Shown here: positions 1 to 13,255 of the stretch, piece by piece
Position numbering within the stretch: position 1 is the stretch's first letter
Layout: every line of letters starts with the position of its first letter
From: an uncultured Acidobacteriota bacterium
Lineage (GTDB): Bacteria > Acidobacteriota > Thermoanaerobaculia > Gp7-AA8
DNA length: 64,000 nt
Direction: 5' to 3'
NCBI GenBank assembly: GCA_963822445.1
Contig: CAWGHO010000002.1
Location: forward strand, 256,001-320,000
Translations under genes and position numbers: made by a program
Notes under the pieces: model-generated
Database searches by the model: none
What the model was told of the DNA's origin: nothing
The model's input: the letters and a program-made list of their open reading frames with translations, nothing else

Positions 1-2
1 TA

Positions 3-437
3 CTCGACGGCTGGCGGCACTATCCGCCGGATATCTTTCCGCCGGTGTGGCAGCGGTTCGACGAATTGATCACCTCCGGTACCGCCCGAGCAAGCGACGA
101 AGTATTGAGGGAGTTGAAAAAGAAAGAAGGCGACGAGACGTACGCGTGGTGCGCCGCTCGACCTGCATTGTTTCTGCCGCTCGACGGGAAGATCCAAAAA
201 GCGGTGGCCGAGATCCTTGCGGCACATCCCAAACTGGTTGAGTCAGGCGGGAAGCGGAGCGCCGCCGACCCATTCGTCATCGCGGTCGCCCGGGTGCACA
301 AGTGCGCTGTCGTGACTGGCGAAAGTGCATCGGGCAAGATCAACAAACCTCGCATTCCAGACGTATGTGAGGCGCTCGGCATCGAAGTTCTGTCACTCCT
401 CGGCGTCTTCCGGCGCGAAGGTTGGACGTTCGCGTAA
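3..437 (+). CDS. PIN-like DUF4411 family protein (5' end outside window)
   Basis: Frame is open from the window start (LDGWRHYPPDIFPPVWQRFDELI). It contains SDEVLREL, ADPFVIAVA, VVTGE and KPRIPDVC motifs typical of DUF4411/PIN-like proteins. Confidence 0.75.
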   Translation, partial: LDGWRHYPPDIFPPVWQRFDELITSGTARASDEVLRELKKKEGDETYAWCAARPALFLPLDGKIQKAVAEILAAHPKLVESGGKRSAADPFVIAVARVHKCAVVTGESASGKINKPRIPDVCEALGIEVLSLLGVFRREGWTFA

Positions 438-5562: not shown

Positions 5563-5639
<77 letters not shown>

Positions 5640-5652
5640 AATGCCCACAACC

Positions 5653-5681
5653 AACGCCGCCTTCGGGCGGCGTTTTTGTTT
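5653..5681 (+). terminator. Intrinsic terminator after tRNA-Val
   Basis: AACGCCGCC-TTCG-GGCGGCGTT followed by TTTGTTT. Confidence 0.8.
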
Positions 5682-6075: not shown

Positions 6076-7203
6076 TCAAACGAACTGCGGGACTTCGGCC
6101 GCCGCCGCCGGCGGCTCGAAGTGTTCCTTCGATTCCCGCACGCGCAGCCGCGGGCCTCGCTCGATCACGGCCTGCGACACATCGATCCCCACCGATTTCC
6201 AGCCCGCCAGGACGGCTTCCTGCGGCGCGCTTCCGGCGCCGAAAAGCTCTCCGGCCGCGCGCCAGGTCGCGTCGGCGCAATGCTGGAATCGCGATCGCGG
6301 ACCGAGCTCGCGCGTCAGCGCCCGATACCAGATCCGTCCCGCGGTCTCCCAGGCCTTTCCGCCGAGGAGCGTGGCCACGCGATAGAAAGCATGGTTGGGG
6401 ATTCCGGAGTTGATGTGCACACCACGATCGTCCGCTGATGTCTTCACGTAGTTGCGCATGTGCGCGGGCTGCGGATCGTCGCCGAGAATCGGATCGTCGA
6501 AGGCGGTGCCCGGCGCGCTGAAGGAGCGGATGCCTTCGCCGTTCACGCGATCGGTGAGCAGCTCGCGGCCGACGATCCACTCCGTCGACGTCCCTTCCGC
6601 GTACTGCTTCACCATCAACCCGAACACGTCCGAGTAATGCTCGGCGAGCGCGCCTCCCTGTCCGCTGAAGGCGAAACCGGCCGCGAACTGCGTGACGCCA
6701 TGAGTAAGCTCGTGCGCGATGACGTCGAGCGCCGAGGTGAAGCGGCGAAAGTACTTGCCGTCGCCGTCGCCGTAAATCATCTGCCGGCCGTTCCAGTGCG
6801 CGTTGTTGAAGCCTTCGCCAAAGTGAACGGTCGAGTCGAGGCGCATGCCGCGGTCGTCGATCGAGCTGCGGGCATGCACGCGGCGGAAGTAGTCGTAGGT
6901 GCGCCCCGCTCCTTCGTAAGCCTCATTCACCGCAGCATCCCGCAAAGCCCGCCCACCCTCGGACCGCACGTTCAGGCCCGGCAGATCACGGGTCATGCGC
7001 GCGTCGAACACCGTGCGCTGCTTGCGGCGTGGCGGAAGGATCAACTCACCGGCGACGAGCGCGACCGCGTGGCGTTCCGCGCGGGGCGGCGCGGACATGG
7101 CCATGGTCGCCATCGCCCGAAGGCGATCCTCCCCGTCGCCGCGCGCGGCGATGTTGCGCAGGATGTGAGGCGGCACGATGCTGCAGAGCGCGCGTCGTCG
7201 CAT
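6076..7203 (-). CDS. M4 family (protealysin-like) zinc metallopeptidase
   Basis: CSIVPPHIL propeptide motif, NNAHWNG, DVIAHELTHGV zinc motif, EHYSDVFG and GVHINSGIPN. Confidence 0.92.
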   Translation of the reverse strand: MRRRALCSIVPPHILRNIAARGDGEDRLRAMATMAMSAPPRAERHAVALVAGELILPPRRKQRTVFDARMTRDLPGLNVRSEGGRALRDAAVNEAYEGAGRTYDYFRRVHARSSIDDRGMRLDSTVHFGEGFNNAHWNGRQMIYGDGDGKYFRRFTSALDVIAHELTHGVTQFAAGFAFSGQGGALAEHYSDVFGLMVKQYAEGTSTEWIVGRELLTDRVNGEGIRSFSAPGTAFDDPILGDDPQPAHMRNYVKTSADDRGVHINSGIPNHAFYRVATLLGGKAWETAGRIWYRALTRELGPRSRFQHCADATWRAAGELFGAGSAPQEAVLAGWKSVGIDVSQAVIERGPRLRVRESKEHFEPPAAAAEVPQFV

Positions 7204-7271: not shown

Positions 7272-10200
7272 TTACGGCTCGATCGACACGGTGCCTGTGG
7301 CCTGCATCGTCTGCGTGCCGCAGGACGTGGCCGCGTACGCGGTGATCGTCGCCGACGTCGCTCCTTCGGCCGGGGCCGTGTAGCGCAGGGTGTACGTGAA
7401 CCAGTCCGAGCTGACGTAGGAGATCTCACCGGCCGTCGCTTCCCAGTAAAGCGTCGAGTAGTTGGCGCTGTACGGATACTCGAGCGTGAAGTCGAAGCTC
7501 CCGCCCGGGGCGACGGTCGTCACGGGCAGCGTCATAACCGGCGCCGCGATCTGTCCTTCGATGCCGATGAAGAAGCCGGAGCCGTAGCCCTCGCAGCCTT
7601 CGGCGAGGCGAATCCGCGACTCCAGCACGAGCGAGCCCGGCTCCAGACCTTCGATCGTGACCGTGGTCGCGTCGGAAGCAACGATCCGGCCGGCCGTGCC
7701 GACGAGCGACCAGATCACCTGCGCCCCCGCGGGAACGTTGTACGCGGTGTATGTCTGCGTCGTGCCGGTGCAGAACGACGAGCTGCCGCCCACCTGCGTG
7801 TACGGAACGCTGTTCGTAGCCTCGACGTAGATGCTGCTGCTGATGCCCGGCGTGCCGGTCGCGTCATGGAAACTGGAGAGATAAATCCAGCCGCCCGTCG
7901 TGACGTTGTGCGTCACGCTGGCCTCGCTGGTGGTGAACGTCTCGCCGGTATCGCTCCACGTTCCCGTGAAAGGCGCGGTCCCGGTGAAGGTGGCGGTCAC
8001 TACCTGCCCGCACGCGCTCGGGCTCGCGGTGAACGTCGCGGTCGGGGGCGCCGGAAGGACCTGCATCGTGCGCGTCGCTTCGAACGCCACTCCGCAATTC
8101 GTGGTGCCGAAGATGCGCACCAGCGAGTCGCCAGTGCCGTGCGTGCTCGTGTAACTGATGACGTAGTAGCCCGGCCAGGGATTGCTCTCGATGGCCATGG
8201 CGTCGCCGAATGAGTTCTCGAACTGGAGCGTGGCCGTGTTCGGATCGACCCAGACGCCGAAGGTCGTGCTCTGTCCCTGATAGACGCCGTACAGATCGAA
8301 CCACGGCTGCTGCACGTATCCGCCGACATTGAGGGACTGCCACGCCGCCTTCGCGCTGCATGCGCCGGGGCCGACGAGCTGCACGCTCGCTGCGACGTAG
8401 AACTCTCCGGCCTGGATGACGATCGAGCTCGTTCCCTGACCCGAGACGATCGTGCCGCCCTGGACTTCCCAGTTCGCGGTCGCACCTTCCGGCAGGGGCG
8501 TGGTGAGGGTCGCGGTGACCGTGCTGTTCGGGCAGGCCGACGTCGTGTTGTACGCAAAGTCAGGCGCCGGCAGGGCAACGTAGTCGAAGGTCGCGGAGCC
8601 GGTCACGACGCCTGGGCCGTTCGCATCGCTGAACTGCGTGATCGTGTACGTGCCGGGGCCGTCCGGATAGAGGCTGATCCATGGATATTCGGCGTAGAAG
8701 GTCTGGCCGTTGCTCCAGGTGCCGGTGAACGGCGCGGTGCCGGTGAGGTTGGCGTAAACGTAAAAGTTTGTGCAGTCGGTGCCGTACTTGTCGACCGTCG
8801 CCGTCGCCTGCACCGGCGCACCCGCGTTGATGGTCAACGTCGTCGACGCGGTGTTCGTCAGGAAGCATTCGTTCTGCATGTTGACGCTGATCGTCGCGAC
8901 GCCGGCGCCATTCGTGGAGCGGTATTCGTACGCGTAGGTGTACTCGTCGACTTCACCGATCGGGAAGATGTTGTCGCCGAGGGAACTGGTGACGCTCCAG
9001 CCGGTGGCGTAATCGTTCAGTCGGGTGACCTTCACGACGGCCGTCCCGCCCGCATCGATCGTCGATGGCTCCACCGTCACCGAAGCCTCGGGCGTCCCCA
9101 GGGTCACGAAAAACGGGAAGGTGTACTGCGACGTGCAGCCAGCGGCGTTGGTGAAGGTTGAGGTGACGGTCGTGTTTCCGGGCTCATTGCCGTAGAACTC
9201 GAGAACCGGCGTGCCCTGACCGGAAACGATGGTGCCGTTCACGATCGACCAGGTGACCGTGACTCCATCCGGAACCGGAACGAGCAGGCGGGCGACACGA
9301 ACGAGCCCGGGGCACGTGCGCGTGCCGTAGTACCAGCCGTTCACGATGTCGTCGTACGCGTATGTCGGCTCAGGCAGACCGAGGGACGTGATCACGGCGC
9401 TGCCGGTGACCTCGCCGGGGCAGGAGTTGCTGTCGGTGAAGCTGGAGATGGTGTACGTGCCTGGCGTGTTGGCGACGCGCACGAGCTGGCTGTCCATCGT
9501 GTAGAACGGCTCGCCGTCGCTCCAGTAACCGAAGAACGGCGCGGTGCCGGTGAAGTCGGCTGTGATGGTGCCCGCATCGCACGAGCTGCCGCCGCTGACC
9601 ACTGCCTTGGGCGCGCAGTCCTGGACCAGGTAAGTCCAGGTCACGGTGCGCGTGCAGGTGCCGGTCGAGACATGCACCAGGACGCGGAAGAATCCGGTCG
9701 CAGGCGTCTTCACGCGCAGCCAGTCAGATCCGGTCGCGAGGATCTCCGCGTTTTCCGCCGTGAAGGTCGCGCTCTCGTGCGGCGCAAGACCCACGAGCGT
9801 GAGCAGCAGATCGAAGCCCGGCGGGAAGTACGGCGTGGCCGGATTGGTGAGGAGGTAGAGGGCGGAGATCTGGCACTGCTGAATGGCGACAGTCGCCGTC
9901 GACCGAACCTCGCACACCGCCGAGTTGCTGTCGCCGCGCGTGATGAATGCGCTGAGTCGCACGGAGCCCGACGCGCCGGCGGTGACCTGCACGGTCTCGC
10001 CTTCGGTCGACGACAGCGTTCCACCGAGAACCGACCAGCGGACCGTGTGGCCGGGGCGCAGATCGACGGAGGCGGTGAAGGTCTCGTTCGCGTTGACCGC
10101 AGGCTTGCTGACCGTGATCGGCGCCGGCTGCACGTTGCAGAGGTCGACGTCGTACGTCAGGTCGCGGCTGAACATGCCGCACTCGGTGGCGACGGTCAGG

Positions 10201-10466
10201 GTCATGTGCTTCCGCCCCGGCAGCTCGGGAACGTAGGTGAACGACCGCTGAGCGGGAGACAGCGTCACCGGCTGATCGAAGTCGTGGCCGGTGATCGTCT
10301 GCGACAGCACGGGTTCATCGAGGAACCAGCTGACCCGGAAGGGCGCGCCGGTGCGGCCATCCTGGAAGCCGATCCCGGAAATGGGATTGACGCAATCGGC
10401 TCCGAAGGCGGAAAGAGAACACAGCATCAGTACAGCAGCCGCTAAAACGGACAGGTGTCGGCGCAA
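7272..10466 (-). CDS. Large secreted Ig/PKD-like repeat protein
   Basis: AGAGGAG RBS, TTG start and signal peptide. Three TGTAPFxGxWS(D/N) modules, repeated WxxxGGT(I/L)xSxxG modules and paired Cys. Confidence 0.8.
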   Translation of the reverse strand: MRRHLSVLAAAVLMLCSLSAFGADCVNPISGIGFQDGRTGAPFRVSWFLDEPVLSQTITGHDFDQPVTLSPAQRSFTYVPELPGRKHMTLTVATECGMFSRDLTYDVDLCNVQPAPITVSKPAVNANETFTASVDLRPGHTVRWSVLGGTLSSTEGETVQVTAGASGSVRLSAFITRGDSNSAVCEVRSTATVAIQQCQISALYLLTNPATPYFPPGFDLLLTLVGLAPHESATFTAENAEILATGSDWLRVKTPATGFFRVLVHVSTGTCTRTVTWTYLVQDCAPKAVVSGGSSCDAGTITADFTGTAPFFGYWSDGEPFYTMDSQLVRVANTPGTYTISSFTDSNSCPGEVTGSAVITSLGLPEPTYAYDDIVNGWYYGTRTCPGLVRVARLLVPVPDGVTVTWSIVNGTIVSGQGTPVLEFYGNEPGNTTVTSTFTNAAGCTSQYTFPFFVTLGTPEASVTVEPSTIDAGGTAVVKVTRLNDYATGWSVTSSLGDNIFPIGEVDEYTYAYEYRSTNGAGVATISVNMQNECFLTNTASTTLTINAGAPVQATATVDKYGTDCTNFYVYANLTGTAPFTGTWSNGQTFYAEYPWISLYPDGPGTYTITQFSDANGPGVVTGSATFDYVALPAPDFAYNTTSACPNSTVTATLTTPLPEGATANWEVQGGTIVSGQGTSSIVIQAGEFYVAASVQLVGPGACSAKAAWQSLNVGGYVQQPWFDLYGVYQGQSTTFGVWVDPNTATLQFENSFGDAMAIESNPWPGYYVISYTSTHGTGDSLVRIFGTTNCGVAFEATRTMQVLPAPPTATFTASPSACGQVVTATFTGTAPFTGTWSDTGETFTTSEASVTHNVTTGGWIYLSSFHDATGTPGISSSIYVEATNSVPYTQVGGSSSFCTGTTQTYTAYNVPAGAQVIWSLVGTAGRIVASDATTVTIEGLEPGSLVLESRIRLAEGCEGYGSGFFIGIEGQIAAPVMTLPVTTVAPGGSFDFTLEYPYSANYSTLYWEATAGEISYVSSDWFTYTLRYTAPAEGATSATITAYAATSCGTQTMQATGTVSIEP

Positions 10467-10575
10467 GAAAAGCTCCTCTAAGCAGGATGGATGGACTTCT
10501 GGACGGCGCGCATGGTCGCACGCCCCTGGGGCTGAAGGGAAGAGTTATTTGAGACTACGACCGCCCCATACGCCG

Positions 10576-10584
10576 TGTTACAAT
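10576..10584 (+). promoter_or_regulatory. Extended -10 promoter for the thrS leader
   Basis: TG-T-TACAAT, 9 nt upstream of the leader ATG. Confidence 0.65.
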
Positions 10585-10593
10585 CCGCGCCCC

Positions 10594-10659
10594 ATGTCCC
10601 GGACGGCCACAACGACTACGCGAACGACGAGCAGCACCACGCTCGCGCCCTGTCGTTGA
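10594..10659 (+). CDS. Thr-rich leader peptide (MSRTATTTTRTTSSTTLAPCR)
   Basis: 9 of 21 codons are Thr, using all four Thr codons, directly upstream of thrS and overlapping the antiterminator arm. Confidence 0.88.
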   Translation: MSRTATTTTRTTSSTTLAPCR

Positions 10660-10719
10660 TCGTTGTTTCCCCTAATTCGAAATGATCAAGACAGGGCTCC
10701 GGCCCTGTCTTTTGTTTTT
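10647..10719 (+). terminator. Attenuator: mutually exclusive antiterminator and terminator
   Basis: The terminator is AAGACAGGGC-TCCG-GCCCTGTCTT+TTGTTTTT (10688-10719). The antiterminator is GCCCTGTC-G-TTGATCGTT (10647-10664) pairing with AATGATCAA-GACAGGGC (10681-10697). Confidence 0.88.
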
Positions 10720-10732
10720 CCGTGAGGTTTCC

Positions 10733-12649
10733 ATGAACGTACAACTACCAGACGGATCGCTGAAGGAAGTTCCAGAGAACGCCACCGTGGCCGACGTCGC
10801 CGCGGCGATCGGCAAGCGCCTGGCCAAAGACGCCGTGGCCGGAAAAATCGACGGCAAGGTCGTCGACGTCTACGCCCCTGTTCACGACGGCGCGAAGATC
10901 GAGATCATTACCGCGAAATCCGAGCAGGGCATCGACACCATCCGCCACTCGACCGCCCACCTGATGGCCATGGCCGTCCAGGAGCTCTTCCCCGGCACGC
11001 AGGTCACCATCGGGCCGGTCATCGAGAACGGCTTCTATTACGACTTCGGAACCGATCGCCCGTTCAGCGAGGAGGACCTCCGCCGCATCGAAGAAAAGAT
11101 GCAGGAGATCGTGAAACGCGACCTGCCGGTCCGCCGCGAGGAATGGAACCGCGACGAGGCCATCGCCACCTTCGAGAAGATGGGCGAGCACTACAAGGTC
11201 GAGATCATCAAAGGCATCCCCGGCGACGAGCCGCTGTCGGTCTATCGCCAGGGGGAATGGTTCGATCTCTGCCGCGGACCGCACGTCCCCTCCACCGGCC
11301 GCCTCGGCGCCTTCAAACTGACCTCGGTGGCCGGCGCGTACTGGCGCGGCGATCAGCGCAACGCCATGCTCCAGCGCATTTACGGCACGGCCTGGGGCGA
11401 CAAGGAACAGCTCGAGGCGCACCTCAAGCAGGTCGAGGAAGCGAAGGCTCGCGATCACCGGAAGCTCGGCAAGGAGCTGGACCTCTTCCACTTCCATCAC
11501 TTCGCGCCCGGCGCCGCGTTCTGGACCCCGAAAGGCACGACCGTCTACCAGCTGCTCTCGCAGTGGATGCGGGACCTGACCCTTTCCAGCGGCTACGTCG
11601 AGGTGAAGACCCCGCTGCTTTACAACAAGGGCCTCTGGGAGATCAGCGGCCACTGGGACAAGTACAAAGAAAACATGTTCCTGGTGGAGAACAGCGAGAC
11701 CAAGGAACACGACTTCTCGCTCAAGCCGATGAACTGCCCTTCGCATCATCTCTATTACGGGATGAAGCGTCACAGCTACCGCGAGCTGCCCCTGCGCCTG
11801 CACTCCCAGGACGTGCTCCATCGCAACGAGGCCTCGGGCACCCTCAGCGGTCTGACCCGGGTCCGGCAGTTCGCCCAGGACGACGGCCACATTTACTGCG
11901 CCGAAGAGGACGTGCCTGAGGAAGTACGCCGCTTCGTGGCCTTGCTCGACCACGTCTACAGCGCAGTCGGTCTCGAGTACACGGCGAAGTTCGCGACCCG
12001 GCCGCCGGTCCGCATCGGTGACGATGCGCTCTGGGACCGCGCCGAGTCTCTCCTCCGCAGCGCCCTGGACAGCCTCGGCCGTCCGTACGAGATCAAGGAA
12101 GGGGACGGCGCGTTCTACGGCCCGAAAATCGACTTCGACGTCTCCGACAGCATCGGCCGCAAATGGCAGCTGGGAACGATCCAGCTCGACTACAACGCGC
12201 CGGCCCGCTTCGAGATGCACTTCGTCGGCGAGGACAACGCCATGCACCGGCCGGTCGTGCTGCACCGGGCGATTTACGGCTCGTTCGAGCGCTTCATCGC
12301 CATCCTCATCGAGCACTTCGGCGGCGCTTTCCCGTTCTGGCTTGCACCGGTGCAGGTCGCCGTTCTGCCGCTTTCGGAGAAGTTCGTCGACTACGCGGAC
12401 ACCGTCGAGAAGCAGCTCCTCGATGCCGGTCTCCGCGTCGAGACCGATCGCTCGAGCGACAAGCTGGGAGCCAAGATCAGGAACGCCCAGCTCCAGAAGG
12501 TCCCCTTCATGCTGGTCCTGGGAGAGAAGGAAGCCTCGACCGGCACCGTCAACCTGCGCAAGCGGACGGGGGAACAGGCCTCGATGACGATGGAAGAATT
12601 GCTGAGCACCGCCCGCGGTTTGGTGTCCGAACGTGCGTTGACTTTATGA
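10733..12649 (+). CDS. thrS: Threonine--tRNA ligase
   Basis: TGS domain, IRHSTAHL, DLCRGPH editing motifs, RDHRKLG, LKPMNCP and GAFYGPKID. GAGG RBS before ATG 10733. Confidence 0.98.
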   Translation: MNVQLPDGSLKEVPENATVADVAAAIGKRLAKDAVAGKIDGKVVDVYAPVHDGAKIEIITAKSEQGIDTIRHSTAHLMAMAVQELFPGTQVTIGPVIENGFYYDFGTDRPFSEEDLRRIEEKMQEIVKRDLPVRREEWNRDEAIATFEKMGEHYKVEIIKGIPGDEPLSVYRQGEWFDLCRGPHVPSTGRLGAFKLTSVAGAYWRGDQRNAMLQRIYGTAWGDKEQLEAHLKQVEEAKARDHRKLGKELDLFHFHHFAPGAAFWTPKGTTVYQLLSQWMRDLTLSSGYVEVKTPLLYNKGLWEISGHWDKYKENMFLVENSETKEHDFSLKPMNCPSHHLYYGMKRHSYRELPLRLHSQDVLHRNEASGTLSGLTRVRQFAQDDGHIYCAEEDVPEEVRRFVALLDHVYSAVGLEYTAKFATRPPVRIGDDALWDRAESLLRSALDSLGRPYEIKEGDGAFYGPKIDFDVSDSIGRKWQLGTIQLDYNAPARFEMHFVGEDNAMHRPVVLHRAIYGSFERFIAILIEHFGGAFPFWLAPVQVAVLPLSEKFVDYADTVEKQLLDAGLRVETDRSSDKLGAKIRNAQLQKVPFMLVLGEKEASTGTVNLRKRTGEQASMTMEELLSTARGLVSERALTL

Positions 12650-12667: not shown

Positions 12668-12700
12668 TGCCCACTTCACACAACTCAGGAGGACATTCGT

Positions 12701-13255
12701 ATTTTTCCACCACGCGGTAAACCCAGATTCGCCCCCCGTCCCGCCGAGCCCGAAAACCGTATCAACGACATGATCCGTGTCGCCGAGGTTCGCCTCATCG
12801 ACTCGGAGGGGAAGCAGGTCGGCGTCGTGCCGATCCAGCAGGCCCAGGAGATGGCTCGGGAAAAGGACTTGGATCTCGTCGAGATCTCGCCGACCGCGAA
12901 CCCGCCGGTCTGCAAGATCATGGACTACGGAAAGTTCATGTTCCAGCAGAAGAAGAAGCAGAGCGAAGCGAAGAAGAAGCAGAAGATCATCGTCGTGAAA
13001 GAGGTGCAGTTCCGCCCTCGGATCGACGAGCACGACTTCGACTTCAAGAAAAACCACGTCATCCGATTCCTCGAGCATGGGGACAAGGTGAAATGCATCG
13101 TCCGGTTCCGCGGACGCGAGATGACCCACATGGAGCTCGGCAAGGCCGTCCTGGACCGCCTGCTGATCGAAGTGAAGGAGCACGGGTCGTCGGAAAGCCC
13201 GAACCCGGACCTGCAGGGCAACCGGATGTCCGTGGTCATTGCCCCGAATAAGTAG
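12701..13255 (+). CDS. infC: Translation initiation factor IF-3 (ATT start)
   Basis: RINDMIRVAEVRLID, PPVCKIMDYGK and KEVQFRP motifs. AGGAGG at 12687-12692 lies 8 nt before the in-frame ATT at 12701, the canonical autoregulatory start. Confidence 0.95.
   Translation: MFPPRGKPRFAPRPAEPENRINDMIRVAEVRLIDSEGKQVGVVPIQQAQEMAREKDLDLVEISPTANPPVCKIMDYGKFMFQQKKKQSEAKKKQKIIVVKEVQFRPRIDEHDFDFKKNHVIRFLEHGDKVKCIVRFRGREMTHMELGKAVLDRLLIEVKEHGSSESPNPDLQGNRMSVVIAPNK

Follow-up and report, generated by a model that had tools for sequence, protein, structure and literature searches.

The 64,000-nucleotide (nt) stretch of contig CAWGHO010000002.1 analyzed here, called the window below, comes from an uncultured bacterium of the Acidobacteriota (Thermoanaerobaculia, Gp7-AA8) and carries thrS, the gene for threonine--tRNA ligase, followed by infC. 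The leader that precedes thrS is, in our judgment and with folding models taken into account, very probably a ribosome-mediated transcription attenuator of thrS (or thrS-infC) that senses Thr-tRNA. An earlier inspection of the letters without database searches (the sequence-only reading) had proposed such a threonine (Thr)-sensing attenuator, and the proposal is supported in silico by the anatomy of the leader, by models of its folding, and by the leaders of two related bacteria. The regulatory codons specify Thr, the very amino acid that the thrS product handles, and the stop codon of the short upstream open reading frame (uORF) in the leader is placed within the 5' arm of the antiterminator.

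The leader, all of whose features lie on the + strand, opens with an extended -10 element of the form TGnTACAAT (TGTTACAAT) at 10576-10584, from which transcription is predicted to start at about 10591-10594, 0 to 3 nt 5' of the uORF ATG. A TAnAnT hexamer occupies the aligned position in all three leaders compared by MAFFT, those of the window and of its relatives L001 and L002 (see below). The uORF runs from the ATG at 10594 to the TGA at 10657-10659 and encodes, in 21 codons, the peptide MSRTATTTTRTTSSTTLAPCR; it was recognized by reading the sequence, by its rank in Thr content, and by homologous uORFs in both relatives. The 9-nt gap between the -10 element and the ATG, which is the sole ground for this judgment, suggests that the uORF is carried on a near-leaderless mRNA. 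Nine of the 21 codons are Thr codons (six ACG and one each of ACA, ACT, and ACC), and they occupy positions 4, 6 to 9, 11 and 12, and 15 and 16, forming a sensing stretch at 10603-10641 that includes the rare codons ACA, ACT, and CGA. Among the 30 Thr codons of thrS, ACA and ACT occur 0 times and once, respectively, and a neighboring 1,064-amino-acid (aa) ORF uses them 5 and 3 times in 156 Thr codons. The Arg codon CGA, found in the uORF at 10621-10623 just 5' of Thr codons, accounts for none of the 43 Arg codons of thrS.

Two mutually exclusive structures can form in the RNA that follows the Thr codons. The first is an intrinsic terminator at 10688-10719 (-18.6 kcal/mol), the sole terminator called by a scan of 10300-10900, with a 10-bp stem (10688-10711) of which six pairs are G-C, the 4-nt loop TCCG, and a T-run at 10712-10719. 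This terminator cannot serve an upstream gene, because the gene at 7272-10466 is on the opposite strand. The second is an antiterminator in which segment 2 (10647-10664), containing the uORF stop codon, pairs with segment 3 (10681-10697) to give a 17-bp helix (8 + 9) that is interrupted by a single bulged G and includes one G-U pair. At -24.2 kcal/mol the antiterminator is the more stable of the two; it is transcribed ahead of the terminator, and segment 3 takes in all 10 nt of the terminator 5' arm. The sequence-only reading had named the extended -10, the uORF without a Shine-Dalgarno (SD) sequence and with nine Thr codons, the rarity of ACA and ACT, the 17-bp antiterminator, and a strong terminator 13 nt 5' of the thrS ATG; the first is present on inspection, and the coordinates, codon counts, and energies given above bear out the rest.

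A further pairing engages segment 1 (10609-10616), which lies inside the Thr codons. In the minimum free energy (MFE) structure of the free leader, 10610-10616 is paired with segment 2 and the terminator is retained, and the modeled pairing may act as an anti-antiterminator and possibly as a pause hairpin. Segment 1 has two possible partners, 10652-10658 and 10660-10666, because TCGTTG is present twice in tandem. The earlier proposal had paired ACAACGA (10609-10615) with TCGTTGT (10660-10666), and these are indeed complementary; folding of the isolated segment 10609-10666, however, favors 10610-10616 with 10652-10658, in a 1:2 element whose total energy is -20.0 kcal/mol.

Each of these leader features is far beyond chance within the 64 kb. 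Runs of at least 8 Thr in 13 codons occur in only 4 of 103,052 stop-free windows in six frames, and all 4 overlap the uORF, which also ranks first in Thr content among 461 ATG ORFs of 10 to 40 codons (the runners-up, of 40 and 32 codons, have 8 Thr each). When duplex energies with 10681-10697 were computed, none of 9,141 sampled 18-nt windows equaled 10647-10664: the latter scored -25.1, the best unrelated window -18.2, and the 3' arm of the terminator itself -17.8. With both strands of the window searched, a strict pattern for terminators (stem of at least 6 and at least 6 T in 8) has just 4 matches. Folding of the entire leader has a z score of -3.2 relative to shuffled sequences, 1 of 200 of which folded equally well.

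To follow the position of the ribosome, an equilibrium model hid the RNA from its 5' end to 10 nt past the A-site codon and gave the probability that the terminator stem forms. With no ribosome on the RNA this value is 0.97, and a ribosome at the stop codon brings it to 0.98. It falls from 0.89-0.90 with the ribosome at Thr 4 and 6 to 0.69 at Thr 7, 0.26 at Thr 8, 0.10 at Thr 9, and 0.01 at Thr 11 and 12, and is back at 0.91 at Thr 15 and 16. A second model folded only the nascent transcript made before the terminator 3' arm emerges. Here the antiterminator forms with the ribosome on any Thr codon of the uORF, sequestering 10 of the 10 nt of the terminator 5' arm for Thr 4 to 12, 8 for Thr 15, and 5 for Thr 16; once the ribosome has reached the stop codon, nothing stronger than -3.8 kcal/mol is left. 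The modeled switching is the behavior expected of a trp-type attenuator. The sequence-only reading had held that stalling frees the antiterminator and that a ribosome at the stop masks segment 2, and had suggested folding both conformers as a check; both models lend support to this claim, the equilibrium model placing the terminator at 0.98 for the ribosome at the stop and at 0.01-0.26 for the ribosome at Thr 8 to 12.

The mechanism that we propose would run as follows. Transcription would begin at or a few nucleotides before the uORF ATG, and a ribosome would translate the 21 codons of the leader. With Thr-tRNA in good supply, this ribosome would reach the TGA at 10657-10659 and cover segment 2 (10647-10664). 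Segment 3 would then be available to segment 4, giving the terminator (stem at 10688-10711 and U-run), and the polymerase would halt 13 to 20 nt short of thrS. If Thr-tRNA runs low, through low Thr or low activity of threonyl-tRNA synthetase (ThrRS), the ribosome would stall on the Thr codons, most effectively at codons 7 to 12. Such a stall would cover segment 1 and free segment 2, the more stable 17-bp 2:3 helix would form first, and the polymerase would continue into thrS-infC. If the uORF were not translated at all, segment 1 would pair with segment 2 and the terminator would form.

Relatives were sought by scanning contigs for ThrRS. Of the 599 loci confirmed, the best 80 were kept, and no more than two of these 80 are close to the window. 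The two are L001 and L002, both from metagenome-assembled genomes of Thermoanaerobaculia, with ThrRS proteins 79% and 66% identical, respectively, to that of the window; the remaining loci of the 80 have ThrRS proteins about 46 to 54% identical and are mostly from Proteobacteria. The thrS leader of each close relative is laid out like that of the window and sits in the corresponding position, with a Thr uORF, alternative helices, and a terminator with a T-run. L002 has a -10 of TATACT and an 18-codon uORF, MKRNTTTTTTTTAERPPC, with 8 consecutive Thr. In L001, where the corresponding element is TGGTATACT, the uORF is MPIMISLTRTTSPTPAPPCW (20 codons, or 17 from a second ATG), has 4 Thr, and ends ...TRTTS...PPC as in the window. 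On the 3' side of the uORF, both relatives have a helix between CCCTGT... and ...ACAGGG that overlaps, through ACAGGG, the 5' arm of a GGGCCGA/TCGGCCC terminator with its T-run. All three uORFs close with CCC-TGT, then 0 or 1 codon, then the stop, which ties the uORF frame to segment 2. Segment 1:2 is built from differing Thr-codon strings in the window and L002, each with a matching partner. The divergent upstream genes of the three loci are unrelated, which assigns the conserved element to thrS. In the equilibrium model, the L002 terminator has a probability of 0.99 in free RNA, 0.15-0.24 with the ribosome at Thr 5 to 11, and 0.99 at the stop; in the nascent-transcript model, L001 and L002 each form an antiterminator that covers 5 of 8 arm nucleotides. 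Conservation of the uORF together with covarying stems had been put forward as a check on the attenuator: the layout is kept in both relatives, weakly in L001, and covariation statistics are impossible with three sequences. The MAFFT alignment of the full leaders is useful just for the -10 and the Thr region. In the alignment used for RNAalifold, MAFFT set the window out of register relative to L001 and L002; the per-pair counts are therefore uninformative and were not taken as evidence of covariation. Two further observations on L001 concern neighboring RNAs: two Acido-Lenti-1 RNA matches, at 6658-6703 (-) and 6810-6855 (+), lie about 150 nt apart in opposite orientation downstream of the thrS region, and the 5' end of a 16S rRNA is found at the locus edge, at 1-125 (-).

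The in-frame conservation of the Thr run bears on the question of what does the sensing. A real attenuator could have a sensor other than the translating ribosome (ThrRS, uncharged tRNA-Thr, or another protein), with the Thr codons incidental or secondary. Aminoacyl-tRNA synthetase genes are often autoregulated or tRNA-sensed, as by E. coli ThrRS acting on its own mRNA, and the uORF here has no SD sequence, which leaves its translation putative. Yet no other Thr run of this kind occurs in the window, both relatives keep the run in frame, and the uORF stop lies inside segment 2; these features speak against such a sensor, since a protein or tRNA sensor would need none of them. The hairpin next to the thrS SD sequence is a terminator, with the loop TCCG and a T-run, in which no anticodon-like loop was seen on reading the sequence. 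The T-box covariance model has no match in 10400-10800 at an E value of 10 or below, and a permissive Rfam scan of the same interval and threshold returned only a chance viral pseudoknot (E = 1.6). We regard a sensor of this kind as unlikely.

The antiterminator helix weighs on a second alternative, that the uORF works mainly by coupling to translation and not by hairpin choice (Rho-dependent polarity, re-initiation, or stand-by ribosomes) and that the hairpin is a constitutive partial terminator or a stabilizer. Leader genes near structural genes have been proposed to boost translation by re-initiation, in Acidobacteria as well (PMC4833913). Here, the uORF stop is 73 nt before the thrS ATG, compared with the 10 to 15 nt proposed for re-initiation, and simple coupling leaves unexplained a 17-bp helix that outdoes the terminator in stability, is unmatched in the 9,141-window control, and is kept in both relatives. 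Coupling in place of attenuation is thus, if anything, slightly more unlikely than a different sensor.

Several results weigh against ribosome-mediated attenuation, or against parts of it. Since a promoter scan that requires a -35 element gave no sigma-70 site and found no -35 at the leader, the extended -10 is the whole basis of the promoter call. No purine-rich SD sequence occurs in the 15 nt 5' of the uORF ATG, and translation of the uORF is putative. In the equilibrium model, stalls at Thr 4, 6, 15, and 16 still yield the terminator (0.89-0.91), and not all nine Thr codons would therefore signal; the ribosome footprint in that model, the A-site codon plus 10 nt, is an assumption. The L001 terminator is favored (0.89-0.94) at every ribosome position under equilibrium, and the antiterminator of this relative, whose uORF has 4 Thr, comes from the nascent-transcript model only. 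The conservation is that of two relatives, and the RNAalifold consensus of the three leaders contains the terminator and a single short helix but lacks the full antiterminator.

The gene presumed to be regulated, thrS, occupies 10733-12649 (+) and matches TIGR00418 with 697 bits (cut-off, 384); its SD sequence, GAGG, is at 10724-10727 as read from the sequence, and its ATG, at 10733-10735, is 13 nt past the T-run. The starts in the relatives agree with 10733. An ATG at 10682 shares the thrS frame and opens an ORF (10682-12649) that passes through the terminator, and because of it gene callers could place the thrS start 17 codons too early; for annotation, this makes both the uORF and the real start easy to miss. 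The short distance between the T-run and the ATG also bears on a third alternative, in which the features arise by chance or have no bearing on thrS, the short transcript bounded by the -10 and the terminator being a small RNA or a small-protein gene without cis control of thrS. Released attenuator RNAs can act in trans, as reported for S. meliloti rnTrpL (PMC6614838), and the RNA of this leader might conceivably do so too. Against an unrelated RNA, the 13 nt leave no room for a separate thrS promoter, so that transcription of thrS must cross the terminator; the match between the Thr codons and thrS and the recurrence of such leaders in other phyla (see below) likewise favor cis control. This alternative appears to us highly improbable.

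The surroundings of thrS offered some observations in their own right. The ATG-initiated infC ORF (12770) aligns to the initiation factor IF-3 model from profile position 11 onward only, and an in-frame ATT at 12701, 9 nt past AGGAGG, would give infC 23 more codons (region 12686-12770). The sequence thus suggests that infC may use an AUU start, an unusual start codon that is known for infC in other bacteria. Divergent from thrS, the 1,064-aa ORF at 7272-10466 (-) has no NCBIfam match; with its N-terminal hydrophobic segment and recurring Thr/Gly-rich modules (TGTAPF.G.WS.G), it may encode a repeat-rich protein, secreted or located at the cell surface, that belongs to no recognized family. An Rfam scan of the whole window at gathering scores found one tRNA only, a tRNA-Val(GAC) gene with a strong terminator directly 3' of it (5653-5674, within 5563-5674 on the + strand) that is among the 4 strict terminator sites.

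Outside the clade, Thr-rich uORFs recur upstream of thrS. In a wider set of 81 upstream regions (the 80 loci plus the window), at least 4 Thr in 8 codons were found in 18 regions on the sense strand versus 3 on the reverse complement, and short ATG uORFs with at least 3 Thr in 5 codons in 19 versus 5. A clear Thr-run uORF of 11 to 20 codons, 100 to 230 nt 5' of thrS (at about 2770-2900 in most loci), is present in 13 betaproteobacterial loci: the leaders begin MTPRTT in ten (L017, L026, L027, L034, L043, L052, L059, L060, L067, and L072) and MFKRTTTTR in two (L015 and L042), and L041 has a related Thr-run leader. A strong terminator precedes thrS in 6 of the 11 betaproteobacterial loci scanned. 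The codon directly 5' of the Thr codons is the Arg codon CGA in 12 of the 13 betaproteobacterial leaders, as it is in the window and in L001 (about 2884-2886), while CGA counts per thrS gene range from 0 to 7 in the other 15 loci. Slow decoding of this codon, a role in RNA structure, and common descent are possible causes.

These leaders are like that of the window in having a Thr-run uORF before thrS and a CGA preceding the Thr codons; they differ in their SD-like sequences, in having 3 or 4 Thr in the run, and in a sequence similarity to the window that is marginal. Sequence homology was considered and set aside: a profile of the three acidobacterial leaders, run with nhmmer against the 80 loci, matched L052 (E = 0.031) and L067 (E = 0.19), both in the thrS leader, in addition to L001 and L002, and this is too marginal for a claim of homology. 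Three of the 13 betaproteobacterial leaders (L052, L042, and L026) were put through the equilibrium model, and in each the terminator was in the MFE structure under every mask, with no switch. An Rfam scan of 13 of the 80 loci (11 betaproteobacterial loci, L001, and L002) found tRNAs, the 16S end, and Acido-Lenti-1, and no leader family. It is conceivable, though we lean against it, that Thr-leader attenuators of thrS form a widespread uncurated class that includes at least Acidobacteriota and Betaproteobacteria, with a CGA core owed to descent or to stall priming and with an acidobacterial uORF that lacks an SD sequence and is possibly leaderless.

If our interpretation of the window is right, it provides a concrete, testable case of amino-acid-sensing attenuation in Acidobacteriota, and it brings thrS under the leader-peptide control known for other synthetase genes, in an architecture that is unusually clean. 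The mechanism is a textbook one, and the conceptual gain is accordingly modest. Should the wider class also prove true, leaderless leader-peptide attenuation would be extended beyond Actinobacteria; the finding of Thr-run uORFs, together with the same CGA, in Betaproteobacteria already suggests a family worth curating.

As to what is already described, the curated amino-acid leader families of Rfam, which cover Thr, His, Leu, Trp, and Phe leaders, have no match in the window leader. The full-text literature searched describes no thrS leader peptide in Acidobacteria or Betaproteobacteria; the most relevant survey, Lopatovskaya et al. 2010 (Mol Biol 44:128), whose subject by its title includes attenuation of aminoacyl-tRNA operons, may already list such cases, possibly thrS among them. 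Two other papers give thrS just a passing mention (PMC6614838 and PMC10274678), and passages of PMC13434334 concern trpL leader peptides. The novelty asserted by the sequence-only reading was too strong in view of the thrL-thrS pair of Streptomyces lividans (discussed below) and the 13 betaproteobacterial loci.

Among known systems, the thrL-thrABC leader of enterobacteria couples a Thr-codon-rich leader peptide to a terminator/antiterminator switch. The window leader resembles it in both respects, and differs in that it would control thrS, whereas thrL controls biosynthesis genes and has Ile codons too. In its logic the window leader agrees with attenuation of the pheST type, an established mode of control for an aminoacyl-tRNA synthetase gene. 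The leader-peptide attenuators of trpS and leuS in Streptomyces and of pheST in gammaproteobacteria are described in PMC1262725 as sensing charged tRNA and not the free amino acid. They share with the window a uORF rich in cognate codons, alternative hairpins, and a terminator before the synthetase gene; the amino acid, the gene, and the phylum differ, being here Thr, thrS, and Acidobacteriota. The E. coli thrS operator and the T-box of Firmicute thrS genes, the regulation of which is cited in passages of PMC2965389 and PMC1262725, act on the same gene and to the same purpose, feedback on ThrRS and on the charging of tRNA-Thr. Unlike the window leader, they do so by protein-mRNA or tRNA-mRNA recognition without a uORF.

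The nearest parallel is in Streptomyces lividans TK24, for which a reannotation by RNA-seq reports leaderless leader uORFs before thrS, leuS, trpS, and alaS (PMC8079986). There, as is proposed here, a leaderless uORF directly upstream of thrS is read as a Thr-dependent leader peptide. The two differ in their equipment: thrL has 2 Thr in 18 residues and one hairpin with no U-rich tract (PMC8079986), whereas the window leader has 9 Thr, a canonical terminator, and the 1:2/2:3/3:4 arrangement. Thr-dependent control is putative for thrL and for the window leader alike. In sum, the architecture of the acidobacterial leader is textbook and its gene class has precedents, and it is the phylum that is new within the literature searched.

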